A stretch of DNA of 64,000 nt. Source: Cyanophora paradoxa CCMP329. Its lineage: Eukaryota > Plantae > Glaucophyta. A program made the translations under genes and the position numbers. The notes beneath the pieces are model-generated. The model was given only the letters and a program-made list of their open reading frames with translations, had not been told where the DNA came from and did not search any database. The stretch is from the NCBI GenBank assembly GCA_004431415.1, contig QPMI01000645.1, forward strand, positions 1 to 64,000, in the 5' to 3' direction. How positions within the stretch are numbered: the first letter of the stretch is position 1; every line of letters starts with the position of its first letter. Positions 25,615 through 50,944 of this stretch are shown here, piece by piece.

Positions 25615-26940
25615 CTAGTACGGCTCTCGCGTGCGCCTCGCGCTGTGGGACGGCCCGCGTGCGCCTCGCGCTGTGGTCCCTGTACTCGGAGTTCGGAGGC
25701 CGCGCGCGACTCTCGCTGTGGCCCGATCCCCCCGGCGGATTCCGGCCGCGACCGCGGCCGGCGAACTTCCACCAGGAGCACGGATCTCGCGAGCGCCTCG
25801 CTGTGAGATGGGCCCGCGTGCGTTCGTCGCTGTGGGCCCCCGTGCAAGGAGTTCCGGGGCCGCGTGCGCCCCGCTGTGGCCCCAGACCGCTTCAGCGGCA
25901 CCGGCCGCTCCCGCGGCCGGCGAACTCCCAACCTGGCCTTCGAATTCGACTCCCGCGTGCGCCTCGCGCTGCGGGACGGCCCGCGTGCGCCTCGCGCTGT
26001 GGGCCCCCTACTCGGAGTTCGGAGGCCGCGCGCGACTCTCGCTGCGGCCCGCTCCGCCCCCGGCGGACCCGGCCGCGCCCGCGGCCGGCGAACTTCGACC
26101 AGGAGCACGGGTCTCGCGAGCGCCTCGCTGTGAGATGGGCCCGCGAGCGTTCGTCGCCGTGGGCCCCCGTGCGCGGAGCTCCGGGCCGGGGCCGCGTGCG
26201 TCTCGCTGTGGCCCCAGAGCTTCACCCCGGAGTACGGCTCTCGCGTGCGCCTCGATCGCTGCGGGACAGCCCGCGAGCGTGCGCGCTGTGGGCCCTGTAC
26301 ATATATATATATATACTCGGAGTTCGGAGGCCGCGCGCGACTCTCGCTGTGGCCCGATCCGCCCCGGCGGATCCCGGCCGCACCCGCGGCCGGCGAGCTT
26401 CCACCAGGAGCACGGATCTCGCGAGCGCCTCGCTGTGAGATGGGCCCGCGAGCGTTCGTCGCTGTGGACCCCCGTGCGCGGAGCTCCGGGGCCGCGTGCG
26501 TCTCGCTGTGGCCCCAGATCTAGAGCTTCACCCCGGAGTACGGCTCTCGCGTGCGCCTCGCCCGCTGCGAGACGGCCCGCGAGCGTGCGCGCTGTGGGCC
26601 CTGTACTCGGGTTCGGAGGCCGCGCGCGACTCTCGCTAGCGCTGTGGCCCGATCCGCCCCGGCGGATTCCGGCCGCACCCGCGGCCGGCGAACTTCCACC
26701 AGGAGCACGGATCTCGCGAGCGCCTCGCTGTGAGATGGGCCCGCGAGCGTTCGTCGCTGTGGACCCCCGTGCGCGGAGTTCCGGGGCCGCGTGCGTCGCG
26801 CTGTGGCCCCAGAGCTTCACGCCGGAGTACGGACCTCGCGTGCGCCCCGCTGCGAGACGGCCCGCGAGCGTGCGCGCTGCGGGCCCCGGACTCGGAGTGC
26901 GTTACGCTGCGGACTATAGCTACGGCTCTCGCTGGCACGC
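25615..26940 (+). repeat. About 4 tandem ~300-bp repeats built from CTCGCGCTGTGG-like subrepeats
   Basis: CCAGGAGCACGG(A/G)TCTCGCGAGCGCCTCGCTGTGAGATGGGCCCGCG recurs at ~25772, 26099, 26404, 26699. Confidence 0.85.
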
Positions 26941-27529
26941 GCGCTGCGAGTATTAGTCGGCCCTCTGGCGCGTCTCGAGCTCGCTGCGGACTAGCCGCTA
27001 GCGCTAGCGCTGCTGGCGCGACCGCTACAGCCTCGCGATCGATCGCGATCGCAGAGTGTTTTGTTTGTTTTTGGTCAATTCTAGTCGATTCAAGGATTGA
27101 CTCGACCTTAAAACAAAAACAAAAACAAAAAACAAAAACAACGGACGTACCCGTTGTACCGGCCGGACTCCGGACTCCGGAGCCGCCGGACCCGCGGTCC
27201 CGCGCCGCGCGGTCTCACTGCCGCAGTGCCAGGCCGCTGACTCAGTGAGGCGGGCACTTCCGGGGGATCCGCTGCCGCAGTGCCGCCGCTGCGGCGCCGC
27301 ACGGCATGCGCAGTCTGCAGTGGCAGTACAGCCGCAGTGCCGCAGTGCGAGCTCGAGTCGGCCGGCGCCCGCAGCTGCAGCTGCCAGGCTGGCGCTTCCG
27401 CTACCGCAGTGCTGCCGCTGCCCCAGTGGCGCGTTACGCTGCGGACTACGGTCCCCGCTTGCGCTCTAGATTTCGCTGCGAGTCGGCCTGCTGGCGACCT
27501 TCCGCGCATCCGCGCCGCACCCTTGCGCA

Positions 27530-30500
27530 ACCCGGGCCCCCGCACCGCAGCTCGGCTCGCCGCCGCCGCCGGACCTGCCTGCGCAGGGCGGGCCGGCCGC
27601 TGGCCCGCCTGCGGCACTCCCCGGCTGGAGCCCAGGGCTCCACCTCCGTCCCGAGGTCCGAAAACGACCTCGCGCGGCCCCGCACCGCCGCGCCACCCGC
27701 CGCCGCCGCCTGACCTGCTTGCGCAGGGCGGGCCGGCCGCTGGCTCGCACGCAGCGCTCCCCGGCTGGAGCCCAGGGCTCCGCCTCCGCCCCGAGGTCCG
27801 TCACGACCTTGCGCGGCCCCCGCGCCGCCGCTCGACCCGCCGCCGCCGCCTGACCTGCTTACGCAGGGCGGGCCGGCCGCTGGCTCGCCTGCCGCGCTCT
27901 CCGGCTGGAGCCTTGGTCTCCACCTCCGCCCCGAGGTCCGTCACGGCCTCGCGCGGCCCCGTGCCGCCGCTCGACCCGCCACCGTGGCACCGCCGCCTGA
28001 CCTGCTTGCACAGGGCGGGCCGACCGCTGGCTCGCACGCAGCGCTCCCCGGCTGGAGCCCAGGGCTCCGCCTCCGCCCCGAGGTCCGTCACGACCTTGCG
28101 CGGCCCCCGCACCGCCGCGCCACCCGCCGCCGCCGCCTGACCTGCTTGCGCAGGGCGGGCCGACCGCTGGCTCGCCTGCGGCGCTCTCCGGCTGGAGCCC
28201 AGGGCTCCGCCTCCGCCCCGAGGTCCGTCACGGCCTCGCGCGGCCCCCGCACCGCCGCTCGACCCGCCGCCGCAGCCTGATCTGCTTGCGCAGGGCGGGC
28301 CGGCCGCTGGCTCGCCTGCCGCGCTCTCCGGCTGGAGCCCTTGGGCTCAACCTCCGCCCCGAGGCCCGTCACGGCCTCGCGCGGCCCCCGCACCGCCGCT
28401 CAACCCGCCACCGTGGCACCGCCGCCTGTCCTGCTTGCGCAGGGCGGGCCGACCGCTGGCTCGCCTGCGGCGCTCCCCGGCTGGAGCCCCGGGCCCCGCC
28501 CCGCCCCGAGGTCCGAAAACGACCTTGCGCGGCCCCACGCCCGCGCTCGACCGCCGCCGCCGCATAACCTGCTTGCGTAGGGCGGGCCGGCCGCTGGCTC
28601 GCCTACCGCGCTCTCCGGCGGGAGCCCAGGGCTCCACCTCCGCCCCGAGGTCCGTCACGGCCTCGCACGGCCCCGCGCCGCCGCTCGACCCGCCGCCGCC
28701 GCCTGACCTGCTTGCGCAGGGCGGGCCGGCCGCTGGCCCGCCTGCGGCGCTCTCCGGCTGGAGCCTTGGGCTTCACCTCCGCCCCGAGGTCCGTCACGGC
28801 CTCGCGCGGCCCCGCACCGCCGCTCGACTCGCCGCCGCCGCCGGACCTGCTTACGCAGGGCGGGCCGGCCGCTGGCTCGCATGCGGCGCTCTCGGGCTGG
28901 AGCCCTTGGGGCCCCACCTCCGCCCCGAGGTCCGTCACAGCCTCGCGCGGCCCCGCGCCGCCGCGCGACCTGCCGCCGCCGCCTGACCTGCTTGCGCAGG
29001 GCGGGCCGACCGCTGGCTCGCCTGCGACATTCGCCGGTTGGAGCCCTTGGGCCCCACCTCCACCCCGAGGTCTGAAGCGGCCTCGCGCGACCCCCGCGCC
29101 GCCGCTCGACACACCGCTGCCGCCTGACCTGCTTGCGCAGGGCAGGCCGGCCGCTGGCTCGCCTGCCGCGCTCTCCGGCTGGAGCCCAGGGCTCCACCTC
29201 CGCCCCGAGGTCCGTCACGGCCTCGCGCGGCCCCGCGCTGCCGCTCGACCCGCCGCCGCCGCATAACCTGCTTGCGCAGGGCGGGCCGACCGCTGGCTCG
29301 CATGCAGCCCTCCCCGGCCGGAGCCTTGGTCTCCACCGCCGCCCCGAGGTCCGTCACGGCCTAGCGCGGCCCCGCGCCGCCGCTCGACCCTCCGCCGCCG
29401 CATAACCTGCTTGCGCAGGGCGGGCCGACCGCTGGCTCGCCTGCGGCGCTCCCCGGCTGGAGCCCAGGGCTCCGCCTCCGCCCCGAGGTACGTCACGGCT
29501 TCGCGAGGCCCCGCGCTGCCGCTCGACACGCCGCCGCCGCCTGACCTGCTTGCGCAGGGCGGGCCGGCCGCTGGCTCGCACGCAGCACTCTCCGGCTGGA
29601 GCCCAGGGCTCCACCTCCGCCCCGAGGTCCGTCACGGCCTCGCGCGGCCCCGCGCTGCTGCTCGACCCGCCGCCACCGCATAACCTGCTTGCGCAGGGCG
29701 GGCCGACCGCCGTCTCGCCTGCGGTACTCTCCGGCTGGGGCCCAGGGCCCCGCCCCCGCCCCGAGGTCCGTCACGGCCTTGCGCGGCCCCCGTGCCGCCG
29801 CTCGACCCGCCGCCGCCGCCTGACCTGCTTGCGCAGGGCGGGCCGGCCGCTGGCTCGCACGCCGCGCTCTTCAGCTGGAGCCCAGGGCTCCACCGCTACC
29901 CCGAGGTCCGTCACGGCCTAGCGCGGCCCCGCGCTGCAGCTCGGCGTACCGCCACTGCCTGACCTGCCTGCACAGGGCGGGCCGGCCGCTGGCTCGCCTG
30001 CCGCGCTCTCCGGTTGGGGCCCAGAGCTCCACTTCCGCCCCGAGGTCCATCACGGCCTCGCGCAGCCCCGCGCTGCCGCTCGACCCGCCGCCGCCGCATC
30101 ACCTGCTGGCGCAGGGCGGGCTGGCCGCTGGCTCGCACGCAGCGCTCCCCGGCTGAGCCCAGGGCTCCACCTCCGCCCCGAGGTCCGTCTCGGCCCCGCG
30201 CGGCTTCGGGCTGCCGCTCGACCCACCGCCGCCGCATAACCTGCTGGCGCGGGGCTGGCCGGCCGCTGGCTCGCATGCAGCGCTCCCCGGCTGGAACCCA
30301 AGGCCCCACCTCCGCCCCGAGGTCCGTCACGGCCTCGCGCAGCCCCGCGCGGCCGCTCGACCCGCCGCCGCCGCGTAACCTGCTTGCGCAGGGCGGGCCG
30401 GCCGCTGGCTCGCACACAGCGCTCCCCGGCTGGAGCCCAGGGCTCCACCTCCGCCCCGAGGTCCATCACGGCCTCGTGCTGCCCCGCACTGCCGCTCGAC

Positions 30501-33500
30501 CAGCCGCCGCCGCAAAACCTGCTTGCGCAGGGCGGGCCGTCCGCTGGCTCGCATACAGCGCTCCCCGGCTGGAGCCCAGGGCCCCACTTCCGCCCCGAGG
30601 TCCGTCACGGCCTCGCGCGGCCCCGCGCTGCTGCTCGACATGCCACTGCCGCCTGACCTGCTTGCGCAGGGCGGGCCGGCCGCTGGCTCGCACGCAGCGC
30701 CCCCCGGCTGGAGCCCGGGGCTCTACCTCCGTCCCGAGGTCCGTCACGGCCTCGCGCGGCCCCGCGCTGCTACTCGACCCGCCGCCGCCACATAACCTGC
30801 CTGCGCAGGGCCGGCCGCTGGTGCGCATGCAGCGCTCCCGGCTGGAGCCCAGGGCTCCACCACCGCCCGAGGTCCGCCACGGCCTCGCGCTCCCCTGTGC
30901 TGCCGCTCGACACGCCGCCGCCGCATAACCTGCCCGCGCAGGGCGGGCCGGCCGCTGGCTCGTCCGCAGCGCCCCCCGGCTGGAGCTCAAGGCGCCACCG
31001 CCGCCCCGAGGTCCGTCACGGCCTCGCCCGACCCCGCGCTGCCGCTCGACCCGCCGCCGCCGCATACCCTGCTTGCGCAGGGCGGGCCGGCCGCTGGCTC
31101 GTATGCAGCGCTTCCCGGCTGGAGCCCAGGGCTCCACCTCCGCCCCGAGGTCCATCACGGCCTCGCGCAGCCCCGCGCTGCTGCTCGACCCGCCGCCGCC
31201 GCATAACCCGCTTGCGCAGGGCGGGCCGGCCGCTGGCTCGCATGCAGCGCTCCCCAACTGGAGTCCAGGGCTCCACCTCCGCCCAGAGGTCCGTCACGGC
31301 CTCGCGCGGCCCCGCGCTGCCGCTCGACCGCCGCCGCCGCATAACCTGCTTGCGCAGGGCGGGCCGGCCGCTGGCTCGCATGCAGCCCTCCCCGGCCGGA
31401 GCCTTGGTCTCCACCGCCGCCCCGAGGTCCGTCACGGCCTAGCGCGGCCCCGCGCTGCAGCTCGGCGTACCGCCACTGCCTGACCTGCCTGCACAGGGCG
31501 GGCCGGCCGCTGGCTCGCATACAGCGCTCCCCGGCTGGAGCCCAGGGCCCCACCTCCGCCCCGAGGTCCGTCACGGCCTCGCGCGGCCCCGTGCTGCCGC
31601 TCGACCCACCGCCGCCGCCTGGCCTGCTTGCGCAGGGCGGGCCGGCCGCTGGCTCGCCTGCCGCGCTCCCCGGCTGGAGCCCTTGGGCTCCACCTCCGCC
31701 CCGAGGTCCGTTCACGGCCTCATGCGGCCCTGCACCACCACTCGACCGCCGCCGCCGCATAACCTGCTTGCGCAGGACGGGACGGCCGCTGGCTCGCATA
31801 CAGCGCTCCCCGGCTGGAGCCCAGGGCTCCACCTCCGCCCGAGGTCCGAAAACGACCTCGCGCGGCCCCGCACCGCCGCGCCACCCGCCGCCGCCGCCTG
31901 ACCTGCTTGCGCAGGGCGGGCCGACCGCTGGCTCGCCTGCGGCGCTCTCCGGCTGGAGCCCAGGGCCCCGCCCCCGCCCCGAGGTCCGTCACGGCCTTGC
32001 GCGGCCCCGCGCCGCCGCTCGACCCGCCGCCGCCGCCTGACCTGCTTGCGCAGGGCGGGCCGGCCGCTGGCTCGCATGCCGCGCTCTCCAGCTGGAGCCC
32101 AGGGCTCCACCGCTACCCCGAGGTCCGTCACGGCCTCGCGCGGCCCGCGCTGCAGCTCGGCGTACCGCCACTGCCTGACCCGCTGGCGCAGGGCGGGCCG
32201 GCCGCTGGCTCGTCCGCCGCGCTCTCCGGCTGGAGCCCAAGGCTCCACCGCCGCCCGAAGTCCTTGACGGCCTCGCACGGCCCCACTCCACCACCCGGCT
32301 TGCCGCCGCCGCCTGCCCTACGGGTGCAGGGCGGGCCGGCCGCTGGCCGCCCACCGCGCTCCTGCTGGAGCTCAAGGCTCCACCACCTCCCCGAGGTCTG
32401 CAGCGACCTCGCGCGGCCCGGCGCCGCCGCCCAGCTCGCTGCCTCCGCCTGATTGGCTGGCACAGGGCGGGCCGGCCCTAGCCCGCCCGCGGCCGTCGGA
32501 CGCTTCCTGGCTGGAGCTCAAGGCTCCGCCACCGCCCCAAGGGCGGGCCGGCTGGTGGACCGCGCGCAGCGCCTCCTGCGGTAGCTAAAAGCTCCGCCGC
32601 CGCCCGAAGGTCCGTAGCGGCCTTGCGCGGCCCCGCGCGGCCGCTCGACCGCTACCGCCGTCGGACCTACTCGCGAAGGGGCAGGCCGGTCGCTGGCTCG
32701 CCAGCAGCGCTCTCCTGCTGGAGCTCAAGCCTCCACCACCGCCCGAGGTCTGCAGCGACCTCGCACGGCCCGCACTGCCGCTCGGCTCGCCGCCGCCGCC
32801 TCGCCTGCTTGCGCAGGGCGGGCCGGCCTCTGGCTCGCCCGCGTCGCCCCCTGCTGGAGCTCAAGGCTCCTTCGCGGCCCCGCGGTCCGTCACGGCCTCG
32901 CGCGGCCCCGCGCCGCCGCTCGACCCGCCGCCTCCGCCCGACCTGCTGGCGCAGGGCGGGCCGGCCCCTGGCTCGCCCGCAAGGCCCCCTGGCTGAAGCT
33001 CCAGGCCCCGCCACTACACCGAGGGCTACTGCGACCTCGCGTGGCCCCGCGCCGCCGCTCGGCTCGCCGCCGCCGCCTGACCTGCTTGCGCAGGGCGGGC
33101 CCGGCCAGCCGCTGGCTCGCCCGCAGCGCCTCATACTGGAACTCAAAGCTCCGCCGCCGCCCAAGGTCCGTGGCGACCTCGCGCGGCCCCATGCCACAGC
33201 TCGGCTCGCCACCACCGCCTGACCTGCGTACGCAAGGCGGGCCGGCCTCTAGCTCGCCCGCGACGCTTCCTGGCTGGAGCTCAAGGCTCCACCCCGCCCC
33301 GAGGTCTGCAGCGACCTCGCGCGGCCCCGCGCCGCCGCTCGACCCGCCGCCGCCGCATAACCTGCTTGCGCAGGGCGGGCCGGCCTCTGGCTCGCCAGCC
33401 GCGCTCTCCTGCTGGAGCTCATGGCCCCATCACCGCCCCGGGGTCCGTCACGGCCTCGCGCGGCCCCGCGCTGCCGCCGCTTCGCCTGCTGGCGCAGGGT

Positions 33501-33730
33501 GGGCTGACCGCTGGCTCGCCCACGGTGCTGTCCCACGGGCGCTCCAGGCCCTGAGGCCCCGCGACTGCTCCCGCGGCCTTCTGCGGCCCCCACACCTCCA
33601 CGCGGCGCGCTTCCGCCGCCTAACCTGCTTGCACAGGGCAGGACGGTGGTGGGCTCACTTTCGGTGCTCACCGGCTGGGATGGTTTTAGATTCCGCCGCG
33701 GCCCGAGGTCCGTAACGGCCTCGCGCGACT
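27530..33730 (+). repeat. 139-bp GC-rich tandem satellite, roughly 44 diverged units
   Basis: Unit CCTGCTTGCGCAGGGCGGGCCGGCCGCTGGCTCGC...GGCTGGAGCCCAGGGCTCCACCTCCGCCCCGAGGTCCGTCACGGCCTCGCGCGGCCCC; repeat-derived ORF starts recur at multiples of 139 bp (29133, 29411, 29550). Confidence 0.93.
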
Positions 33731-34155
33731 TCACGCCGACGCGCAGTGCGACCGCCTTGCCCGCCCTCCACCCGTAGCGCGCCCCTGGCCCGCACCGCCC
33801 AGCATGACTTGTCGGCGGCGGGGATCTGGCGGCGCAACTATCAAGCGCCGCCCCGGTTCGTCGACTGTCCCATAGGGTACGACGAGAACCCCCCAGCCTT
33901 CTGTGCCGGCTCGTTCCCTCGGGCTTCTTGGCCCGCCCCGGCCCCATGTTGTTGTCCGAATTCACGCTCTCTGCCCGTCCCTCCTACAGCGCAGTGCGCT
34001 GGGGGATAGGGGCTCAGCGTCCGAGACACGTTGGGGTAGCGGGGGAGGAGGAAAGAGAGGGGGGGGGGCAGGAGGAGGGTGGATCAACCCTCACCCTCTT
34101 GATCACTTTTGTCCTTATGTATGCTATTCTGGCTGGCTGTGACCTGACTCTTGTT

Positions 34156-34709
34156 TGGTAGGGGGTACTGCATTCGTGCTGCGTTCGCTACGCTCACCCC
34201 CGCGGCCTCCGGCGGCGGTACCCGGCTTCGGATCCCGAACCCGGAAGAAACCGCGTACCCCTCCCCGGGGTACGCCGTTCGCCCCAACCGGCCCCACAAG
34301 GCGCGGCCCGAGCCGAACGCGTACCCCGGAGAGGGGTACGGCGTCAGAGCGGCCCCGATCAAGTGTACCCCGAGCGGGGTACCCCGATCGGCCCCGCGAC
34401 GGCCCGAGCGGAGTACCCCGAGCGGGGTACACCGTCTCGACCCGCAACGGCCCTCCCCGGGGTACAGGCGCCTAGCACGCTTACCCCGGAGAGTTCTTGT
34501 TCCGGAACTCGCAAGGGCGAGGCCGGAATGGCATACGGCGATCCGCCCTGGTCGATCGCCAACGTATTATGATACGTGGTTCCCGGGAAAGCAGCCTTGA
34601 GCTGCCGTACCTCAGGGCCCAACCCGATGCGCTATCCCGTGCATCTAGCTAAGTAGTGTCAGGCGTAAGATAGCTAGGTCTTCTGCATTCGAATGAAGCG
34701 AGGCGTAAA
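34156..34709 (+). repeat. Split direct repeat B1 (~555 bp)
   Basis: Near-identical to 35673-36229 and to the reverse complements 50945-51502 and 52466-53023. Confidence 0.92.
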
Positions 34710-35026
34710 TCGGGATTTGCGCTCTCAATGCGTAAATCGAGTTTTGCGCCGACGGAATGCGAACAAAGAAGACCGTAGCCGAGCGCCAGGCACGAAAGAG
34801 CTGAGCGACTCGCTAGCCGCGGAAGCGGCGCGAGGCGAGCACGGGATTAGCAGCAGGCTGCTGCGAGCGCCCCTCAAGGGACTAGCTGAGCTAGCCGTTG
34901 GGCCGAGCCAGCGGGCTTGAAGCCGCCGAGCTCCGGGGGGTACGCTGATTCGGGGTTTCCCTTCACGCCCAGCTTCGCTCGCGGCCGCCCCAGGCCACGA
35001 AGCGACCAGCGGCGAAGCGAAATCGC
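34710..35026 (+). repeat. Split direct repeat A2, abutting B1 (internal copy of the end-to-start junction)
   Basis: ...GAGGCGTAAA|TCGGGATTTGC... is the element 3' terminus fused directly to its 5' terminus. Confidence 0.92.
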
Positions 35027-35672
35027 TCCCGCCACCTCCCGCGATTTTTCCTTCCGGGGCGCCGAACCTCGCCACCCAGCGAGCCCCGGCGCCGCGAAAA
35101 GTTCGCGCAAAAAGGCAATGCATACGGCGACCAGCGCCAGCGTTCGCCGAGGGTATTATAATACGTGGTTCCTTGCCGTCTCCTGTGCACACGGTTCCGG
35201 ATGTTACTCCCGCTCGGTGCCGGCCACCAGCGCGGACGTGGTCGTGCACAGCTGATCCGTGGTAATTTACAATGGTTCCGTCGAAGATTCGGGCACGAAC
35301 CGCGCAGACTCGGTGTACCGGTCGTCATTCGTGTTTCCACGCGCGTCCGCTGGGCCCACTTGTGCCGGGCCGGGGTCCAGCGCGCCCCCAAGAAACAGTC
35401 GCGCGGCTTCGTGGAGAATCTCGAGTTTTCCCCGCTGGGTTTTACCCTGTTTTCCTCTGGACCCGTGGGTGCCGAGCCGGGGTCCAGCGCGCATGACCGT
35501 TACGCGGTTTTCCCGCGGTAACTTGCTGGTTTTCGAGTCTGCCGCCCCGGCGCGGGGGGAGACTTCGCGCATGATTCGGAGTCCTGTTGGTTTTTGATGA
35601 GCCTCGGTTGTCGTACGTTGTACGACTCCTTGGTCTCATGGTCGTCTGCGGACGACGGGCACGCTACGCGTG

Positions 35673-36229
35673 TGGTAGGGGGTACTGCATTCGTGCTGCG
35701 TTCGCTACGCTCACCCCCGCGGCCTCCGGCGGCGGTACCCGGCTTCGGATCCCCGAACCCGGAAGAAACCGCGTACCCCTCCCCGGGGTACGCCGTTCGC
35801 CCCAACCGGCCCCACAAGGCGCGGCCCGAGGCCGAACGCGTACCCCGGAGAGGGGTACGGCGTCAGAGCGGCCCCGATCAAGTGTACCCCGAGCGGGGTA
35901 CCCCGATCGGCCCCGCGACGGCCCCGAGCGGAGTACCCCGAGCGGGGTACACCGTCTCGACCCGCAACGGCCCTCCCCGGGGTACAGGCGCCTAGCACGC
36001 TTACCCCGGAGAGTTCTTGTTCCGGAACTCGCAAGGGCGAGGCCGGAATGGCATACGGCGATCCGCCCTGGTCGATCGCCAACGTATTATGATACGTGGT
36101 TCCCGGGAAAGCAGCCTTGAGCTGCCGTACCTCAGGGCCCAACCCGATGCGCTATCCCGTGCATCTAGCTAAGTAGTGTCAGGCGTAAGATAGCTAGGTC
36201 TTCTGCATTCGAATGAAGCGAGGCGTAAA
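35673..36229 (+). repeat. Split direct repeat B2 (3' terminus of copy 1)
   Basis: Direct repeat of B1, ending GGCGTAAA. Confidence 0.92.
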
Positions 36230-39200
36230 TGGCAGCAGCACGCAGGCGGCGCGAACCGGAACACCGGGCGGCCGGGGGGCGGCGGAGGCCGGCGGGACGA
36301 CCCGCGAGGCCCACTCGTCTGTTACAACTGCGGCAAGGAGGGTCATGTGGCTGCGCGCTGCCCCGACCCTCCGCGGGAGCGGCGTGGAGGAGGCGACTAC
36401 CGCGCGGTGCAGCCCCCGGCGCAGGCGAATTACGCGGCGACGGGCGCGAACGCGACTCCGACGGCACCGGCCCAGCCGCCGATCTCGCAGGAGCAGGTCA
36501 ACTCGATGCTACAGGTGGTCCAGGCGGCACTCCTGAACAAGGCGGGCACCAACGCGGTCGCCGCCAACACTCCGGAGGCCGAGGCCCTCTGTAGGGAGGT
36601 CATCCGACAGTACCTCCAACGCATGGCCGAGGAGAAGCTTACGGGATCAGAACGCCGGCGGAGGAGGCGAGCAGCACGCGAAGCGGTGGACGCGACGGCT
36701 GCGGGTGCGGAGCAGCTGGAACTGCGGACGGCCAGTTGGGAAGACGACGGACGGATGGAGAGGCAGTCGGACGGCACGCCGTCATCCAACTGGGCTACAC
36801 CGGCGGGCTCGTCGGGATCAGCATCGCCCATGTCGACGGGCACACCGCGCGGACGGGAGCCGATGGTAACGGACGGCGCTGCGGCCGGGCTCGCCCAAAC
36901 CGCACAGCCGGACGGGACCTGTGACGACGCGACGGACCCACTGCACGGACCTGAGACGGCAACAGTGAACGGCGCTGCAGTCGGGCTCGCCCAAACTGCA
37001 CAGCCGGACACGACGCCCGTCAACACGGCGGCGACGGAGACGGGACCGACCGACCCCGCGTCAGAGCTCGCTCGAAACGCGCAGTCAGAGTCGGCCCCAC
37101 TCTCTACGTTCTTCACTTCCGTGCTGGAACGGGCCCGACGAAGCTTCGCGGCCCTGCACATCCGCCTCCAAGGCGAGGCAGTCATGCCGGAGGAGGAGCG
37201 CACCGCTGCTCGGCAGGAGCGGGAAGAGGACGACCCGGGGTCGGGGTCGGAGGACGCGGAGAACGACAGCCTCGACGGCGGGCCACTGCGCCTCCGAGGA
37301 GGAGGAGGCAGCAATACGCCAACCCCGGACGGAGGCGACGACGCCTTCAACTCGGAGGCAGTCCAAGACGTTATCGACCCGATGCCGCCGCTCACCGCAC
37401 TGCCGGCACCCGTGCCGCTAGGCCCGGGCCAGATCGAGCTCTTGGGCGTGGCGGTCGACCCGGCGGAGATGGCCGCGGCGGAAGAGCAGGACGACCCGCC
37501 TCCGCTCTGGCGCTCCGACGACGAGGCGAGAGGCGACCCGGACTCCGACGACGACCTCTATCCACCGACGGGGACGTACCCGAACGGCTACGACAGCGAT
37601 TGCAGCTCGACCGCATACTACCCGACTACGATGCTTGACATCGAACTCGCCGACGCACGAGCAGCAGCGGCTCGGCGGGGCGTCACAGTGGAGCAGCACC
37701 TGGCGGAGCAGCTTGCGGAGGCTGAGGCGGCACTTGACCGCCCCCAGAGCCCCAGCGACGTCTGGGCGGGCGTGGCCGCGAGGATGTCGCCGGGCAGCGA
37801 GCGCGCCCCGGGCAGCATCAGTACGTACGTCGACGAGTGGCTCCTGGGGATCGCAATGACAACGGAGGCGAACCCGGCGGCGGACACAGCTACACCGGCG
37901 ACACCCGCGGCTGCGACGGTCCTCCGGGCACGGGCCCGCCTGCTGGCAGGACGAGCGATCGCCGACAGAGCCGCACGCCACCGCACGGACGCTCGCGACA
38001 CCCAACGCGAGCTGCAGGGCGACGCGACGGCGCGCGACGACGTTGCGGATCAAGTACACGACGGCCTCATGCAACCAGCCGTGCTCCGCCTGATTGCTCA
38101 GGAGGCCGCGAGGAGGGTGATTGGGGCGCGGGCGGTCGATCGCGGGACCACGTACCAGGCCGCCCAGCAGACGATCAGAGGCGACGTCACGGCGGAACGC
38201 GAGCTGACAGAGGCTGTCCTGGCGGACCTGCGGCAGTGGCGTCAGACAGGCGCAGCGGCGGAAGCGACGGCAGCGGTCACGGAGGCCTGCAACACCCCCA
38301 TGTTGTACACGGTCTACGACACCACGTCTGGCTTCCTCAACCCGCCCCAGCAGACGCCTACGCTCATCGCCCCTCCCGCGCGCCTTCTTCACCCGGGAGT
38401 CATGCCCTTTGGTTCGAGCTCGGGGACGAGCACAGGGCTGTACGACCGAACGGTGGAGGACGTGCTCGCGATGCAATTAGCGGGGCTGCTGGATGCTGAC
38501 GGACAACCCACGGCAACTGCCGACGCTGACCGTGACCAGACGCGGGAGACGGACGCGGCCGAAGTGCCGTATACACCGACGTTCGCAGAGGGGAGGACAC
38601 GCGTCGAGATCATCGCGAACCTGCTGCGAGCGGTCGAGAACAGACTGGAGACCATGCCGCCCCCGCCGCCTCTCCCGCACATGCCCCCGATTCACTACGT
38701 CGACGACGAGGCGATTATCCAGGGTCAGGCTGAGACCATCGTGGACGCCATCATTGCTACGCTCCGACACCGCGTGGATGACCCGCGCACGGAGCTCCGG
38801 CGACGCTTGGGGGATGAGCTCTCGAGGTGGACGGGGGGGCCGTATATCGTTTACCACAATCGGGGGCAGATTGCACGGCTCCATGCAGCTTTCCTACGGG
38901 CACTCGATCGCATCGCCATCATGCAGCAGTGCCGCCCACCACCACCGCCGCGCCCGCGGCACGAATCCGACGACGACGAGGATGACCTCAACGGCTTCGG
39001 ACCCTCCGACGCGGCTACCAAGTCGAACGCGGGACGGACGGCACAAACCACAGCAACGACTGCGAGCGGCTCGGGGAGACGCCGGCCGTCCCCGCTGGAG
39101 GAGGTGGACCCGCTGGAGACTCTCCTGGAAGTCTTCTACCAAGCCAAGCTAGCAGTGCACGCAACTACGGATGCGCCAGACACCGCGGGCACAGTACTGC

Positions 39201-42200
39201 GTCTTCGCGGAGGAGCGGGCAAGCGGACCCGGTCGACCGCAGGCATCAGCTCAGGCGAGGACGACCCGCCACGGCAGCGCCCAAACCGCCCACCGACGCC
39301 AGCCGTGACGGACCCCGCGCTCGGGCTCGCCCAAAGCGCGCAGGCCGTGATGACGACGGCGTCAGCAGAGGCCGCAGAGTTGCAGCGCGTGGAGAAGTTG
39401 GCACCCGCTGGCGAGCAGTGCCTGATGACGGCGGAGGCCGCGGAGACGCAGCGCGCGGAGGGCGCGGAAACGCCACCTGCAACGGACCCCACGTTCGGGC
39501 TCGCCCAAAGCGTGCAGGCCGTGACGGCGGCGTCAGCAACGGAGGAGGACGCGAAGGCGTTGGCACCCGCTGGCGAGCGGTGCCCGACGGCGGCAGAGGC
39601 CGCGGAGACGCAGCGCGCGGAGGGCGCGGAAACGCCACCTGCAACGGACCCCACGTTCGGGCTCGCCCAAAGCGTGCAGGCCGTGACGGCGGCGTCAGCA
39701 ACGGAGGAGGACGCGAAGGCGTTGGCACCCGCTGGCGAGCGGTGCCCGACGGCGGCAGAGGCCGCGGAGACGCAGCGCGCGGAGGGCGCGGAAACGCCGC
39801 CTGCAACGGACCCCACGCTCGGGCTCGCCCAAAGCGTGCAGGCCGTGACGGCGGCGTCAGCAATGGAGGAGGACGCGAAGGCGTTGGCACCCGCTGGCGA
39901 GCGGTGCCCGACGGCGGCAGAGGCCGCGGAGACGCAGCGCGCGGAGGGCGCGGAAACGCCACCTGCAACGGACCCCACGTTCGGGCTCGCCCAAAGCGTG
40001 CAGGCCGTGACGGCGGCGTCAGCAACGGAGGAGGACGCGAAGGCGTTTCAGTTGGCACCCGCTGGCGAGCGGTGCCCGACGGCGGCAGAGGCCGCGGAGA
40101 CGCAGCGCGCGGAGGGCGCGGAAACGCCGCCTGCAACGGACCCCACGCTCGGGCTCGCCCAAAGCGTGCAGGCCGTGACGGCGGCGTCAGCAATGGAGGA
40201 GGACGCGAAGGCGTTGGCACCCGCTGGCGAGCGGTGCCCGACGGCGGCAGAGGCCGCGGAGACGCAGCGCGCGGAGGGCGCGGAAACGCCACCTGCAACG
40301 GACCCCACGTTCGGGCTCGCCCAAAGCGTGCAGGCCGTGACGGCGGCGTCAGCAACGGAGGAGGACGCGAAGGCGTTGGCACCCGTTGGCGAGCGGTGCC
40401 CGACGGCGGCAGAGGCCGCAGAGACGCAGCGCGCGGAGGGCGCAGAAACGCCACCTGCAACGGACCCCACGCTCGGGCTCGCCCAAAGCGTGCAGGCCGT
40501 GACGACGGAGGCGACGGCAGCGGAGCCAGGCGGCGACGTCGTAACAACACCACCACCGGACGCCCCACAAGAGCACACGTACTCTCCGAACTCGCCTTCC
40601 CATCCGGATCACCCCATGAACATCACGAGGATGGAGATCGACTCGCCGTCAGAGCACACGCATGACGAGGCGGAGCACACGTGGGAGGCGAATTATCGAC
40701 GACGGCTGAAGACGGGCCAGACGATTAACAACGACACTCGATACCGTGCACTCGCAGAGTACACGATGGACAAGTACGGAGTCCCGCGGTCGTCAAACGT
40801 GAGACGCCAGGTGGCGGACGGATTGATGCGCAATATGGACCCCCCACCCCGAACGGCACCAGCCCACCAGGCCCTACACCCGGGCAACGCGGAACTGATT
40901 GCGGAACTCACACGGGCGGACGCGGGCGAACTGCTCAACGCCCATGCAGGCCCGATCGACGAGCGGTGGCTTGGGCTGTGGGGGAGGTTGACATCAGACG
41001 GACGTTGGCGACTCCTCCAGTGGACGGCAATGGAACGCAACGTCGACACGGCTACGCTGGCCGCGCAAGAACACCGAGAACGAGCGGCGAAGTTCGCCGA
41101 GATCCAGGCGGCGGGCGGGGGCCGGCGGATGCAGGAAGTCGAGCGGGGCGAGGAGCCACGCGCGTGGGAGACAACCGTGGCGGCGGACGTCGCGCGGGCT
41201 TACGCGGTCCACCGGGGCATCGACAAGGAGATGTCTACCGCCGGGATCGGCGACGGCAACGTGGAAGAAGCCCTGAGGTCGCTGAGCTCTCGTGAGGCCG
41301 GCTACTACAGGGTCGTCAGTCGGGCGGTCTTCACGATGCTCGGAACCAACACGGTCTGGAACCCGCAGTGGATCACGGGAGGACGCCCGGGGGGCCCCCC
41401 GCCGACCCACTTACCACGATCCATGAGACCAAAGGAGCGGTCGATGATGGACTACGAGTTCACGAACCCATCGCAAGAGGAGGGCGTTCGCGAGCGGCAG
41501 ATCTGGCAACACCTGGCGCCGCTGATGGAGGCCGTCAAGCCGTGGGTTGGACTCACGGATACAGCCCGCTTCGGAGCACTCGCTGCGGAGGCTGACAAGC
41601 GACGTGTCTCGGTGGAACAGCTGCCGGACATACTGATCGAGGAGTGGGGACAGCTCTGCGACCTCGCGCGGCAAGCAGGCTACTTGCGGTGGGAGCGCGT
41701 TGCAACGGGCGCGGATAACCCCAGGCACCAGCACGTCGCGGTGGCCGACATTTTCGTCCAGACACTCGACCTTCTCGGCCGCCTGGACCACGAGCGGGAC
41801 CGGTACCACCCGGGCCAACCCTGGTTCAAGGTGTTCCGAGCGCTGGCGGCCGAAGAAGCGGGTTATGGGAAGGGGAGGCGGGCGCGAGAGCTGTACGAGC
41901 AACTCGCAACCCTACGGGACTCCGTCACAGGACGTGCTGAGACGGAGACGCTACTGAAGATGTACCGCGGGGAAAACGGCTGGGACGGCTGGCAGTACCG
42001 GCTGCCGCACGCAACGGCGTCGGTAGAATTCTCAACGGTCTACACGTCGCGCGACCTGAACAAGACGCGAACGGGGGAGAGGCCGTACATCGACAGGGAC
42101 CTGACCGAGCCATTCCGGATGGATACCGAACTCCCCAGGCGTGACTTCAGCATCTGGATGGCGCGCCAATCGCGTTATGTACGTGACGGGAAGAGCCTTC

Positions 42201-45200
42201 CCTCGCCACCGCTGAGCCGACACTGGGGAGAGGGCGCGTACGGCACAGACAAGGAGAGTCTCGTGGTCACGACGCAAGTGGAAGTGCAGGCAGCACTACT
42301 ACACGCCAAGCTTCCACAGTTCAGGCGGGCAATGGCAGCACTGATCATGACGGGGTTCTCGGGCTTCGTCGACCCCTTTGTCGAAGCGCCGGAGCGGCGT
42401 TGCAGCGGGGAGATCAGCGACGCGGCATGGCGCGACTCGGCCAGGCAGGGCCTTTCGTGCCTCGGACACGATAGCCTTCTCGCACTGTTCGGCGTCGAGA
42501 TGCGCGAGATCGGACACTTCACCAACGCAGTCGACAGCATCATGCCCACGCTCGTCGCGTTGGGTATCGAGCTTGGCAGACGGCTGAATGGCGAGCGTCA
42601 GCGACGCGGGCGAGGCGCCCCCATCCAGTTCGACACGGGGCTTCTCGAAAAGGCGCTAACGTCCCAAGCAATGGATGAGGCAGTCGAGGAAGCTACCCGT
42701 TACGTCATGCTAGCGGCAGCCACGATGGAGACGCCGCCAGCACTGGAGGAGTGCCCCGACGCCGAGGTCGCTTTGCGACTCCGTACGCACGCGATAACGT
42801 GCGGACTGTCACTCTTCCTCGCGGCGCGGGACCCGAGGGCGGAAGGAGGTCTCCAGTGCCCTCGCACACTGTGGGACTCGAAGGGCAGCGAGGTCGAGTG
42901 GGTGGACGTGCTCAACACGAACCGAGCGTTCGACTACGACCTCCCGGACGGGTTCCTGGTGACGTTCCTCGTGGAGATCTGCGAGAGCTTCTTGACGGTG
43001 GCGCGGTATGCACGCACAATCGACGGGCGTACACCGACGATCGCTTCGGTGGCTGCAGCGGAGGACAACGAGAGTAGGGCCCTCTTCACGCGCACCAGGC
43101 CTAGCTTGCGCACGGGCCGCACAAACGTGAACCTCGAGGCACTCTCCTGGAGCACTGCCTTCCGTACGGCACTCGGCTTCACGGGCAAAGCGCACCTGTT
43201 CTGCGACCTCATGGAGGAGTTGCTCTACGTGAATGCGATGGCGGTGGATGTACCGTTCAGATTGGTCGACGGCGACTTACGGGACGGAGCACGACGGGAG
43301 GCGATTGCCACCTACCTGCGCCAACGGCGGGTGATCCCCGTACACTACAGATTCGTGTCTCGCGAGAGCAAGACGCGCGCGATTGTGCACCTCACGTACT
43401 CGGCGGGGCTGGCACGGCTGCGTCGGGATCACAACGTCATCCGTGACAGCATTGCCATGCTCGCCATCGAACTGCACAACGACCGGGAGGAGGGGAACAA
43501 GCCGAACGCAGCGTTCAGTTGGGCTCCGCAGCCGCCCCAGGCCCCCATGCACCTGGCAATTCACGATCCCGATGTCACGTGGTACGCGGCGCCTTTTCAG
43601 TCGACACCGTTCATCCTTGGCCGGCGGGGGGAGAATCTCCGGCTAGTTCCCATCGCAGTGGCGATGACGTCGCTCAGGACCCTCTTGCTCAGAACGGTCA
43701 CGGAGCGGCTGCGCGAGTCCATGACAACGGCGATTGCGACAGCGACGGGCGAGTCGGACCCGCACAGCGCGAAGGCGCAGCAGGCTGTACGAGTACTGAC
43801 TTCCTGGATCATGGAGATGGCGGCGTCGCCCTTCAAGGCGTACACGGTCGCAATGATTGTGGGCCACCCAATGCAATTCTTCACTCTCCTGCGCACGCTC
43901 CATCGCGAGCAGCTGCAGCACGGCAACGAGGGACTGCAGCGTTACCCGCTGACTCCGAACCGGCAACTCCCCGTCGTCATGCAAGGGCGGCGGCAGGACT
44001 GGGAACGGAACATCCCGCTACACCACTTGCCCGTACGCTCGGCAAAACCCGGCGCCTGGCCGTACTACGCGGGCGCCAACGCTTTCGGTCTCCCAACGGT
44101 GATGGAGGGGGAGATGAACGAGACGGAACGCCGAGTTATCGTGCACTTTGCGCTACGTCCGGCCCCGAACGTTGCAGGACCAAGCGGCGGCTCTGCGACA
44201 ACGGTGGCGACGCTATCGCCCCCTCAGGACGCTCGGCCTGAGAGCGCGGCAGTCGCCCTCGTGGCGAGCGGCGACCCGGCCCGGATTAACACGAGCCGGC
44301 GACCTGCGAAGCCCCACGAGGTGACGGCCGTCGACATGCTACTCCATGGAGGGCCACTGGCACAGGCCGTCGGCAAGCAACTGCAGCACGGGGACGGCGC
44401 GTTGACGGCAGACGACAGAGCAATCCAGCAGGACCTGTTCGTCCCGACACCTCTCCCACGCCACGACGTCGACACGGATCCCTTGCTCCTTCGGGATCAG
44501 CCGGCGAGCGGCTACTTCCACTACACCACGTGGAGACGCCTGCACGAGCGGGCCGAACCGGTTGACGGTGCCATCGCCGCGGCGTTCGAGTCACAACGGG
44601 CACGGGCACCTCGCATCCAAGGGCGGCTCTTCCAGCAGGCGATGGGCCAGCTGCTCGGACAGCCAACAGGCCCGCGGGCCAGACCGGGGGAGGAGCGCGC
44701 TGGAGCGCCAAGCGCCCGGCCCCTGGCCGAGGCCCCGCAACGCCGGCGGAGGCGCCAGCAGCCACAACCGGAGGACCAGCCCTGGGAGCGTTACGATGCA
44801 CTGGGACGGGTGTGCATCAACGGGGACGAGCTCACGCTCTTCACGGACGTCAAGGCGGGGACAACGGCGCTGCAGAGCCGGTTCGAGTACAGGGCTCCGA
44901 CGCGGACGGCGCTGGCCTGGCAGCATCCGAGTCATCCCACCTCCGCCGAGGAGCTGACGACGGACCACGGATCCGTGTTCGACCCGGCCCGCGACGACGA
45001 CATTCATGCAACGATGGTGTTCGAGGTGCAGTTGCCAACGACAACGGAGCGACACTGGCTCGGGACGGACGACGGGACGGGCCACGACCTTCTTCTCGGG
45101 TTCTCGCATGTCCCCGACCCGCATCGGGAACTGACAGCGGTCGCCCACCTGGCTTCCTGCTTTGCCACGACAGCCTTGCGCGTCCACTTGGCATTCCCCT

Positions 45201-48200
45201 TGGTAGCCTGGCTATTGAACGCACTGACGGGGCTACCAACGAGCGTGGAGGCGGCAGCTCACAGTTGCAACCTGCCGACGGGATTGGGGGCGTACGACAT
45301 CCTGATGGTTCGCGAGACGAAGCTGCGGCAGTACGTCTGCGCCAGCGACACGCTCCGGGCGGTCATGATGCGCGAGATCGCTGTCTGGTACAACGCCGGG
45401 ACCATGCTGAGCAGAGTCGTCGCATTCCTGCAGGACTTCAACAAGCCCGGCGTGCTCAACCGCCACGACTGGCCCTGCTCGACAGAGTTGGAATTCCAGA
45501 CGGCGGATCCGCGACAGGTCCACGTCGCCCCGCAAATCTACCCCTGCTTCCTGGGTGACGTCTGCGTGCACCCGGTGCCCAGCGAGCACTTCGAACACTA
45601 CAGCCCGACTAACCCGCAACGGACACCGCTCGAGCCCGACGTCGGGCGGGAGATGTTCCCAATCGACCTGCAGAATGAGGTCATGCCGCCGGCTCGTGTT
45701 ACGCTGAGCTCAAAGACGCGCGAGGGCCAACAGAGATTCCAGCAGTACGCCGTCCAGCAAAATGCGTTCACACAGCGACTTCTCGGGCTCCGGGAAGAGC
45801 GCTCGGAATTTCCAGCAGCTCTGACCTCGTTCGGGCACTTCGTCGGGGCGCACGGCGTTATCGTGAGCGTGGGTAGTTGCGTGAATTCACAAACACGTGA
45901 CGAGTTGTACGAACAAGGGGGAGTGACCGAGCGGCAAGCCCGTCGTTGTCCGCGACACCCGGAGGTCTTTGCGGTCCTCGGATTCCGACGCGAAGTGGTA
46001 CGCGCACAGATCAGCTCGGGGTTCATCCTGGCTGCGGTCATGCAGCTGCACGCGAGCAACCCGCGGCTTTCGACACCGATGCCAGCGGAGGTGGCGGATC
46101 ACATCCAGCAGCGCTGCTGTTACATGACGGGCTACCCGGCGTATGTCGAGGCCGTGCCCGAAGCCACTGAGAGCGACATGTGCGACGGCACGTACCACGT
46201 GCAGCCGGCACTGATGAACTTCCTCACGAGACATGGTTTCACCTGCCCGGAACCATCAGTCTTTGCGGAGAGCATCCGGCTGGGCATCATGCAGGCGGCG
46301 ACTTTCTTCCGCGGCTTCCGCTTCTACAAGCCTCGTCGGCCCGTAGATCCATGCACGCTGGACAACATGATCGCGGTACCGGTGATGCGGGCGTTCACGA
46401 TTACCGCGGACGGCGACGGCAACCAGCAGACACACGTCGACGCGTCGCAACTGGAGGAGGTGGCCGATCGGTTCGCGCTGATCTTCGACCGCTGGTGGAG
46501 TATGGGTGAAGCGCACGAGGGAGCGGCGTTGGACCCGCTCCATACGTCACTGTTCCCCATCCTCCTCGACGAGATGCTGCAAGGGGAGAACAGCGCCTTG
46601 TGGACAGAATTCACCACGTGGCTACGTGACGCGTACGGGGACGAGGCCCTGCACATCACCCACGCGGGCCCGCTGGTGTACCACGAGGCGCAGGCGGGAC
46701 CGGAAGGGCACCCGGAGGGTGTGGCAGAAGACACCAGCCTGCGCCTGCGGGCGACTAACCCGCTCCCGTACTACCTGCACTCTGCGCCCAAGCGGCGTGG
46801 CGACGCGTTCATCGACTGCAGTCTAGTAGGAAGTGGGGCCAGGGAGCTGGCGGACTACACGGTGTGGATTGCTCTCCCGCCCGAACCGGAAGCTGGCGGA
46901 ACTGGAGACGACGACGACGACGGGGCGGATGGAGGCGACGGAGGTCAGGGTGGCTCTGGGCGGGGGCCGCGACGCCGACGGGCAGGCCGGACTCAACGTC
47001 CGCCGCCCTCGACGGACGAGACAAGCTCACAGGCGCCCACCTCGGCAACGTCGGAAGGGTCGAAGCGGGCGCGCACTCGGATGGGGCGCAAGCTGCAGAG
47101 ACGCCTCGCGGCCAGCGCCAAGGCGACGGTGGGCACAACAGGCGGAGCGCCAACAGCGTCATCAACGACAGATTCGACGTACGGGGGCTCGACATCTACG
47201 ACAACAGCGTCGTCAGCGGCGACGACGATGTCGTCATCGGCGTCGGTCTACAGCTCGGAGACTGGGGACACAGCGTCGTCGGTGTACGTGACGGCACCGT
47301 CCGAGTCGGAGGCGGCAACAACAGCACCACGGCGAGTTGCACGAGCGCTCATTCCTACATCACTCCGCGCCATCGCGAAGTACATGCTCTCGATAGACTA
47401 CACGGACCTGCAGTTCGTCACGTTTCTCCAAACAGCAACGCGATGGACGAAGTACCACGGCTCGGGGCAACTCCTCCTCTTGGCAGGAGCAGGGGCGTCA
47501 ACGACCGGGGAAGGCGGCGCCTGGTACGACCGGGACTTCGTAACGCAAGTCGACGCGATCGACTGGACGAGTCTACGGCTCTCTCATAGCCTCGTCTACA
47601 CGCGCATGATTCACTTGGCGGCGTACATCGCACGGAGGACGGCGCGATGGGCCGTGGACGGCACAGATTCTCGCTCGGCGGCGCGGAAACTGGAGGTGCA
47701 CAGGCAGGCGGTCTTCTACGTGACGGTAGTGAGCAACGCGTGCGGGCGAACGACGCGGGAAACTCTCCTGGCCAAACGCGTACCCCGGCTCGTCCCCGCC
47801 GCGGCCTGCATTGATCTGCCAAAGGAGGCGGCGCTGACGGCGCCGGACACGGTCACGTGGTACACGAAGCGAATCCTGTCGGTGACGCCACTCGAGTTCG
47901 ACGGAATCGTGAGCCAGCTGTGCACGTTCATCAACGCTTGCACAGATGCAAGCTGCGCCCTGCCCTGCGACGTCCAGAACCCCGTGTGCGTGGCGACAGT
48001 GGATCGCCGACTCGTGGCACGAATGTATGAAGGGCGTACACCGGAGGCAGAGCTGAGGCGGATCCCGGACCTGATCCACGAGGTGCAGAGTGACCTCACG
48101 GTGCTGCAAGGACTCTACGAGACGACGCAGCGAATCCAGAAGGAGCTCGGCCGCCCCGCACGCAACAGCGATTTGGCGCTGGAACTCGCGGTCAAGGAAT

Positions 48201-49327: not shown

Positions 49328-50944
49328 TACCTCGGGGCGACGAGACGCCCCTACTCCCTCCTTCCTTCACTGTCCCCACCCAACTCTGGTCACACGCCTC
49401 CCGAACCCCCCGCCACCTCCACGTTCATATCTGTAACCCTACACGCAAACCGCTCCACCTTTCGGAGGGTACGATCATCGGCTACGCTGAATTCGGGCAC
49501 TGGGAAGAGGGCGAGTTCACGCCAGACTCCACGCCCTTCCCCTCGGGCCCGTCCTCCACGTGGACCGACGATCAGCGACGGGCGGCTGCACGGCGAATCC
49601 TGCAGGCGGCGCGACCTGTGGTGGTCCGTCGGCGCGTCGGCCCGAAGCACTTCCGCCGAGTCGCCCGGCAACGGTGGCCAGAATGTTTCAAGCGCCCGGA
49701 CACCAACAGCGGTGAACAGGAGCAAACACCGCTTACGGCCGACGAGGTCCAGGAACTCGACGCCGCCCTCGACAAATGGTCCACGCGACTCGAGCGACAG
49801 ACGGGCGACGGGGCAGTTGAAGCCCGCGCTCACATCGCCGACTTGCGCTGTCTTGTACTCCGATGGCGAAGGGACAACCTGGACCCCGGGGGGCCGCAGT
49901 CGCCTCCAGCAGCAGTACGGCAAGCGACGATGAGTACGAATGCGATGGATCCGCCGACCTCCGACAAGCCTCCAGACGAGAAGTCACCCGAGGAGGCCTG
50001 GAAGGAGGCGCTCGAGGCGCTGCGAGCCGCCTCGCGGGCAGACGCGTTACCGGAGACGACCTCGTTCCAGGCGGAGCGGCTGACGGCCTTGCTCAGCCGC
50101 AACAAGCGTTCCTTCACCAACCGCCTGGACCCCCGGGATCTGCTCAAATTCGAGCACTCGCTACAGCTCCAGCCCGGAGTCGACAAGGTCAACCTGCCGC
50201 TGTACACTCACCCGCGTCGGATGTCACCGACAGCGGAAGAGGCTACACGGAAGGAGATCGAGAAGTTGCTGCGCGACGACTTGATCGAGCCCTCCCAGGC
50301 TGGCTATGGCTCCCCGGTGGTGCTGGCGCCGAAGAAGGACGGCACGCTACGGTTCTGCATCGACTATCGCAAACTGAATCTGCTGACGGAGCGCGACGTC
50401 TTCCCGCTCCCCCGCATCGACGACCAGCTCGAACGGCTGCGCAAGGCGCGCGTCTTTTCAACCTGTGATGCGACGTCAGGATTCTGGCAGCTTCCGCTCT
50501 CGGAGGAGTCGCGCAAGTACACGACGTTCATCGTCCCTTGGGGCATGTACCAGTGGAAAGTCACTCCATTCGGGATCACGAACGGGCCGTCGGCGTTCTG
50601 CAGGGCTATCTCGTCGATCATGGGACCGCTTCTCTCGACCTGCGTGGTCGCGTACGTCGATGACCTGACCATCTTCTCCTCCACGGTCGACCAGCACCTC
50701 ATCGACCTGGAGGCCTTCTTCGCCGCCGTGGAACGCGGGAACCTCAAACTGAAGCCGAGCAAGTGCCGCTTCATGGTCCGCGAAATCGAGCTCCTGGGAC
50801 ACCGCGTCTCCGGAGAAGGCGTACGGAAGGACAAGAAGAAGATGGACATGATCGCCAAGTGGCCCGAACCGTCAACCCCGGAGAACCTCCACTCTTTCGT
50901 CGGCCTCACGGGTTACTACCGACGCTTCGTCCGCAACTACGCCC
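49141..50944 (+). CDS. pol: pol part 1: spacer plus Ty3/gypsy reverse transcriptase, interrupted by insertion 2
   Basis: GSPVVLAPKKDGTLRFCIDYRKLN...FPLPRIDD...D ATSGFWQ...PFGITNGPS...AYVDDL (YVDD at 50653)...SFVGLTGYYRRFVRNYA. Confidence 0.95.

Follow-up and report, generated by a model that had tools for sequence, protein, structure and literature searches.

In pestiviruses such as bovine viral diarrhea virus (BVDV), whole or nearly whole ubiquitin captured into the polyprotein is cut after its terminal Gly-Gly by a host deubiquitinase (DUB), independently of the viral protease (PMC5381556; PMC8310069). Cutting reportedly requires the complete ubiquitin and becomes inefficient when up to 32 residues are missing (PMC5381556; PMC8310069). 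Coronaviruses and other viruses have short fold-less di-glycine sites in their polyproteins, which are processed by a papain-like protease/DUB of the virus (PMC9741609; PMC8013793), and internal di-glycine cuts also occur in the cellular proteins USP1, FAU, SDE2 and TUG (PMC8013793). The planarian gypsy elements Burro and GYPSM1 have a very long first open reading frame (ORF1), contain tandem repeats and are connected to the ubiquitin system (PMC6431247). Here, we describe a 64,000-nt stretch from the glaucophyte Cyanophora paradoxa CCMP329 (assembly GCA_004431415.1, contig QPMI01000645.1, positions 1 to 64,000 of the forward strand; the whole stretch is referred to as the window), in which ORF1 of a giant Ty3/gypsy-type retrotransposon encodes two exact copies of the ubiquitin C-terminal tail that are not preceded by a ubiquitin fold. 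All positions refer to the window and to its plus strand unless indicated otherwise. Bare-tail motifs in a retrotransposon have apparently not been described: titles and abstract openings, a coverage outside of which most subscription papers lie, held no description of bare ubiquitin tails in retroelements, and the passages of PMC6332867 on algal ubiquitin fusions contain none on RGG, cleavage or transposons.

Two Bare Ubiquitin Tails in a Giant Gag Polyprotein

LRLRGG is encoded at 37286–37303 (site 1; aa 365–370 of the ORF, followed by GGSNTP) and VLRLRGG at 39194–39214 (site 2; aa 1001–1007, followed by AGKRTRST), corresponding to ubiquitin residues 71–76 and 70–76, respectively. ISG15, which shares this tail, is of no relevance in an alga. 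Positions, reading frame and flanks of both motifs as well as the predicted new N-termini GGSNTPTPD and AGKRTRST, all given in a preliminary description of this DNA, were found to be correct. LRLRGG occurs nowhere else in the six frames of the window, which comprise 127,996 codon positions. The residue following the di-glycine is Gly at site 1 and Ala at site 2 and, hence, in neither case Pro, which blocks cleavage at ubiquitin tails (PMC5381556). The motifs had been characterized as differing in their codons; this applies to three of the six, yet 15 of the 18 bases are the same, the three differences are all silent third positions, and all four Gly codons are GGA. Alignment of the flanks ends within a few bases, and the motifs may either have arisen twice or go back to an old duplication of which only the peptide was kept.

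Within the 90 aa before each Gly-Gly, a ubiquitin match was not obtained in Pfam or PDB at E-values up to 10, and a single-sequence model of aa 913–1019 (mean pLDDT 61) consists of one helix at 39110–39163 and no strands, corroborating the earlier statement that a ubiquitin fold is missing upstream of the motifs. The short helix proposed before each of them is not found at a common spacing, as about 41 aa separate its end from site 1, compared with about 12 aa at site 2. Of the features of a ubiquitin fusion, the exact LRLRGG tail and a following residue other than Pro are present and the fold before the Gly-Gly is absent; as far as can be judged from the sequence, the motifs are not a ubiquitin fusion.

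We propose that these exact, fold-less tails are selected cutting sites at which a host DUB would cleave after Gly-Gly, freeing Gag from a tail of about 4,000 residues, and assign this interpretation a probability of about 0.45, that is, slightly below one half. A need for such a cut can be assumed because Gag continues without a stop codon into another 4,000 residues or so and the retropepsin of the element would act late; retropepsins normally act after particle assembly. The enzyme would be either a reader of the R-x-R-G-G tail itself, similar to ZUFSP or Mug105, or ordinary DUBs cutting slowly. Three products are predicted, namely Gag (about 1,035 aa), a middle protein of 637 aa (37304–39214, ending in VLRLRGG and without any family match) and a 3,370-aa remainder, which comprises the element's own protease and would be extended into Pol by frameshifting. 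The size of the middle protein agrees with that given before. The Gag size is likewise accounted for by 677 + 358 aa (22639–24669 and 36230–37303), although an 11.6-kb insertion stops this copy from making it, and from the assumed composition of Gag, capsid plus knuckle, the CCHC knuckle is present whereas a capsid domain was not detected. Cleavage would take place in the cytosol and would be partial and slow, so that most Gag would assemble and uncut molecules would supply the particle with protease and Pol. The two pieces set free would carry Gly-Gly at their C-terminus, where it is a degron read by KLHDC2 in human cells (PMC8013793), and the lysine-free stretch described below would guard them from ubiquitylation.

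In its widest form, the proposal is of a retrotransposon polyprotein processed by host DUBs via bare six-residue tails, with neither a ubiquitin fold nor a cysteine protease of its own and with products shielded by a lysine desert of about 800 residues, which would provide natural non-ubiquitin substrates of tail-reading DUBs of the ZUFSP family and leave the Gag end open to binding or conjugation. This extended version is tentative, with the odds being somewhat against it. In the ESM Atlas, a usable match was not found for the 637-aa middle piece or the site-2 segment. The start of the predicted third product, AGKRTRST (39215–39238), conforms to a short basic motif for nuclear import. For the new end GGSNTP, N-myristoylation was dropped as a possibility in view of the Pro at position 6.

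Chance Expectation and the Lysine-Free Stretch

From the composition of the ORF, 0.0011 LRLRGG copies per ORF are expected, corresponding to a probability of about 6e-7 for two or more, and in 20,000 shuffles within 50-aa blocks one copy was obtained 19 times and two copies were never obtained. The empirical rate, derived from 80 other loci that contain the motif once, and off-frame, over 937,554 codon positions, results in a probability of about 1e-5 for two copies. By all of these estimates, the motif pair is not a product of chance for this ORF. Selection on the motifs, deduced rather than directly observed, is likely. Variants found in four runs do not fall inside either motif, an observation that carries no information at a density of 20 variant sites per 3,091 bases.

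A stretch of 794 residues (36638–39019; ORF aa 149–942), reaching across site 1 and the greater part of the middle protein, is free of lysine, whereas lysine amounts to 1.7% in aa 1441–4377. Asn, Ile, Tyr and Met, residues with AT-rich codons, are present at normal levels in this stretch, and a lysine-free run of 794 was reached in only one of 5,000 shuffles. Other residues likewise show long free runs in this shuffle test, a result we ascribe to the tandem repeat of 54 aa. The lysine-free stretch is not accounted for by low complexity alone because the repeat region and the pol piece after RNase H do hold lysine (1.8 and 2.7%, respectively). P0002, one of the two related proteins discussed below, also lacks lysine over aa 14–687. 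Lysine deserts have been interpreted as protection from stray ubiquitylation and tied to contact with the ubiquitin system (PMC10169902), and a role as a shield against such modification is described in a second source (PMC10665810).

Relatives and a Diverged Copy

Beyond the zinc knuckle, the only protein relatives are P0001 (95% identical) and P0002 (98%), both labelled as Cyanophora paradoxa gene models. Where these proteins cover the motifs, they retain them, site 1 in P0002 and site 2 in both (two of two). Searching with region 1480–4300 against proteins of 30–2,406 aa gave one match, P0001; with aa 13–1032 against proteins of 561–1,785 aa, none of 7,970 candidates was related, nor was any of 3,933 with region 300–430. 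At the 90% level, the protein-relative search left out proteins of 2,407–7,660 aa. Among 1.84 billion representatives, 39 matches were obtained, namely P0002 and 38 proteins having their best-matching stretch on the zinc knuckle.

Searching viral contigs with the reverse transcriptase (RT) gave no match. From metagenomes, the best 80 of 525 RT relatives (35–48% identical) were analyzed, and likeness to ORF1 was not detected in any of these RT-bearing loci. One of them, L054, encodes VLRLRGG off-frame, by chance. In another gypsy-like locus, L003 (1–14052), the gag and pol frames are preceded at some distance by an open frame at least 1,036 aa long.

A diverged copy of the element is present in runs X1 and X19 at about one third of the family depth. 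Of 1,191 bases aligned, likeness of 80% is reached in just two islands, 37265–37296 (28 of 32 bases, corresponding to DSLDGGPLRLR) and 37328–37381 (42 of 54), which are separated by 316 letters in the diverged copy and by 31 in the window. The loose end after 37381 reads VPPLVQLGPM by hand translation, compared with MPPLTALPAP in the window, and because it thus continues in frame, the diverged copy looks like a true relative. The better-matching island being that at site 1 is suggestive of selection, but only suggestive. A third piece at 37432–37474 was taken as a probable chance match. Likewise, a rise in depth at 39112–39215 in runs X6 and X7, considered as indicating a second family, is read instead as overlapping contigs at a variant.

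Weighing of the Proposed Cleavage

Several observations weigh against cleavage by a host DUB. Some events of 1e-5 probability are bound to turn up when very many windows are scanned, and the lysine-free stretch was noticed post hoc. Among the 20 variant sites of recent copies in 36200–39290, 12 alter a residue (scored singly, with two sharing a codon), which does not indicate strong constraint on this region. Retention of the motifs in P0001 and P0002 says little because both are nearly identical to the window and distant protein relatives were not found in the four protein searches; in long plus-strand ORFs of the 80 RT-bearing metagenome loci (93,082 residues), LRLRGG does not occur. Island 1 of the diverged copy ends inside the second Arg codon, leaving the Gly-Gly codons unseen; the contig starts at that island, and at site 2 there is no piece of this copy, the depth being flat there in X1 and X19. 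Moreover, the window copy itself is broken twice, by two 11-kb insertions. On the enzymatic side, typical DUBs need intact ubiquitin and leave the peptide substrate RLRGG-AMC uncut (PMC5824887; PMC8776766), truncated ubiquitin signals in pestiviruses are cut inefficiently or not at all (PMC5381556), ISG15 with its RLRGG end is still not cut by ZUFSP (PMC5824887), and the passages on ZUFSP in PMC5824887 do not include cutting of a tail inside a polypeptide.

Because typical DUBs and pestivirus signals depend on ubiquitin, a tail on its own would have to be recognized by a tail-reading enzyme or would be cut slowly. Ordinary USP and UCH enzymes, proposed in the preliminary description for testing cleavage, do not cut the bare RLRGG peptide (PMC5824887; PMC8776766). 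ZUFSP and Mug105, however, cut RLRGG-AMC well, with two acidic residues reading both arginines (PMC5824887), ZUFSP (ZUP) proteins from plants and insects are even more active on this substrate (PMC8776766), and it is also cut by the VTD domain of a Helitron (PMC9741609). In an explanation we regard as distinctly unlikely, the sites would be cut after Gly-Gly by a papain- or OTU-like cysteine protease of the element itself, encoded in its approximately 2,700 unannotated residues or past the window end, or by that of another mobile element. Viral DUBs do process the polyprotein of their own virus at di-glycine motifs (PMC9741609; PMC8013793), Helitrons bear OTU and VTD DUB domains, most of the ORF is without annotation, and the pol 3' end lies beyond the window. 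Nevertheless, a DUB or cysteine-protease family was not detected in Pfam, neither with the whole ORF at E-values up to 0.1 nor with 10 pieces of it at values up to 10, a match to PDB sequences was not obtained, and a crude scan did not reveal any OTU, USP, UCH, Ulp or JAB pattern. An AlphaFold model of aa 2863–4062 had a mean pLDDT of 34, too low for use. In the part of the element covered by the window, the predicted retropepsin is the sole protease found.

It is also improbable, albeit to a lesser degree, that the motifs are selected but remain uncut, either binding or distracting DUBs or other tail readers or functioning as RGG-type sites for RNA binding or methylation near the nucleocapsid. 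Besides the resistance of tail-only peptides to most DUBs (PMC5824887; PMC8776766), this would agree with the further Arg-Gly-rich stretches flanking the knuckle and with the lysine-free stretch, which fits close contact with ubiquitin enzymes even when a cut is not made. In addition, early cleavage would uncouple Pol from Gag, a connection that is normally needed for packaging. However, an RGG box leaves the exact L-R-L prefix, occurring twice, unexplained, and tail-reading ZnF-UBP domains depend on a free glycine at the C-terminus, which would arise only through cleavage. Similarly low is the probability we assign to neutral motifs, one of which would have originated in an Arg/Leu/Gly-rich linker, either fortuitously or from a captured fragment of ubiquitin mRNA, before being copied by internal duplication. 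The region is indeed duplicated internally, with 11 occurrences of CGGGCTCGCCCAAA that lie upstream of site 1 or downstream of site 2; the motifs have 15 of 18 bases in common and use GGA for Gly throughout, one chance copy costs merely about 1e-3 to 5e-3 per ORF, and the off-frame VLRLRGG of L054 is itself a chance occurrence. Duplicated flanks, however, should be as alike as the motif, whereas likeness ends within a few bases, and that all three motif differences are silent has by rough reckoning a probability of about 0.03. Furthermore, additional ubiquitin residues do not precede either motif, and both the lysine-free stretch and the match island of the diverged copy would be left unexplained.

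Anatomy of the Element and Its Nested Insertions

By its predicted domains, the element hosting both motifs is a giant Ty3/gypsy-type retrotransposon with a gag-to-protease ORF, the order gag knuckle, protease, RT and RNase H matching that of Ty3/gypsy long terminal repeat (LTR) retrotransposons. The gag 5' part at 22639–24669 (677 aa from the first Met) is assigned to Gag by its position; a capsid domain was not detected in it, nor was any notable Pfam or PDB match, those to a spike protein and others in PDB (E 0.47 or worse) being disregarded as weak. A second Cys/His cluster in this part (24180–24430), without family match, is possibly a zinc-binding module. Thereafter, gag is interrupted by nested insertion 1 (24670–36229, 11.6 kb, with split direct repeats and a 139-bp tandem array) and continues at 36230–49327 with the ORF1 3' part (4,365 aa), which contains the CCHC zinc knuckle (36317–36364; PF00098, E 2.6e-5; ORF aa 42–57), both motifs, tandem repeats and the aspartic protease. 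Read from stop to stop, this middle part of the element is an ORF of 4,377 codons (36194–49327), to which the residue numbers given here refer. Contigs of at least runs X1, X6 and X7 proceed from the 24669 side directly into 36230, and an uninterrupted form of the element therefore exists as DNA, its ORF1 amounting to 677 + 4,365 = 5,042 aa.

Directly after site 2, an in-frame tandem repeat of 162 bp (54 aa; family D11) extends over 39235–40512 in at least seven copies. The 14-base word CGGGCTCGCCCAAA is found at 22088, 36886, 36982 and within 39322–40474, with one occurrence upstream of gag and 10 in coding sequence (GLAQ repeats), and may act as an RNA signal or have been left by template switching. 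From 40631 to 48400, about 2,600 residues of ORF1 are of ordinary globular composition, and a match to them was not obtained in Pfam, in PDB or among proteins from other organisms. The retropepsin-type aspartic protease with its DSG motif is predicted at 48800–49048 (aa 4203–4285; PF13975, E 2.9e-4, short of the curated cut-off). A candidate –1 frameshift heptamer, C CCT TTT (49135–49141), lies in frame for entry to pol and, coming after the protease, leaves the latter in the Gag frame; the RNA fold 3' of it is not notable (z 0.48). The frame change into pol appears to be common to P0002, because this protein ends at the terminal residues of the window ORF. After the heptamer, the pol frame includes a dUTPase-like stretch with a faint Pfam match (E 0.18), followed by the RT in the –1 frame (50329–50808; PF00078, E 1.4e-33), nested insertion 2 (50945–61815, minus strand, 10.9 kb), which interrupts pol and is the element of insertion 1 in opposite orientation, and RNase H (61902–62312; PF17917, E 3.8e-25). 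Up to the window end, beyond which pol continues, an integrase match was not obtained. An LTR could not be fixed in the DNA upstream of gag, and the 3' end of the element lies beyond the window. Excluding the insertions, coding DNA of the element in the window amounts to 18.9 kb.

The insertions at 24670–36229 and 50945–61815 represent one non-coding-looking element of 11 kb in opposite orientations. Each has split direct repeats, with units of 317 bp and about 560 bp in the order A...B-A...B, and a long 139-bp tandem array, and is without target-site duplication. In read coverage, the terminal repeat of the insertion is far deeper than the host retrotransposon. This structure resembles that of non-autonomous tyrosine-recombinase retroelements such as TOC1. 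The latter has been named as a non-autonomous DIRS element (PMC9940879).

Comparison With Known Systems

In size, the element resembles Burro/GYPSM1, with an ORF1 of 4,873–5,140 aa in the planarian elements and of 5,042 aa here, and both share tandem repeats and ubiquitin-system links (PMC6431247). However, Burro has folded Ubi2/SUMO-like, MATH, BCL2, BIR, ankyrin and env parts, for which there is no such Pfam match here, its host is unrelated, and the section on these elements in PMC6431247 does not describe a cleavage motif. Hence, to judge from its encoded domains, the element is not a Burro element. With the pestivirus insertions (PMC5381556; PMC8310069), the proposed processing would share a host DUB cut after Gly-Gly that does not depend on an own protease, but just 6–7 tail residues are present here, twice and in a retrotransposon, instead of whole or nearly whole ubiquitin. 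This analogy, already drawn in the preliminary description, holds in principle and is weaker than stated there, as efficient processing in pestiviruses needs a nearly complete ubiquitin (PMC5381556). Short fold-less di-glycine sites within a polyprotein are, on the other hand, also characteristic of coronaviruses and other viruses (PMC9741609; PMC8013793). In these cases, the virus supplies the papain-like protease/DUB, whereas none was detected in the window part of this element, and its sites, unlike the viral ones, match the ubiquitin tail exactly over 6–7 residues. The cellular di-glycine cuts are similar in leaving N-terminal pieces that end in Gly-Gly, a C-degron cleared by KLHDC2 (PMC8013793). 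FAU, SDE2 and TUG, though, have ubiquitin-like folds and USP1 cuts itself, while the motifs here are fold-less, and the degron pathway, described in human cells, is not known for this alga.

Maturation of LTR retrotransposon polyproteins is generally ascribed to the aspartic protease of the element, and cleavage by a host DUB, if true, would constitute a second route. It would then explain how elements with Gag polyproteins of 5,000 residues can assemble particles, and it would provide a natural substrate for the so far unexplained cutting after partial ubiquitin by ZUFSP-type enzymes. In that case, the bare tail would represent a six-residue self-processing tag, comparable to 2A peptides.

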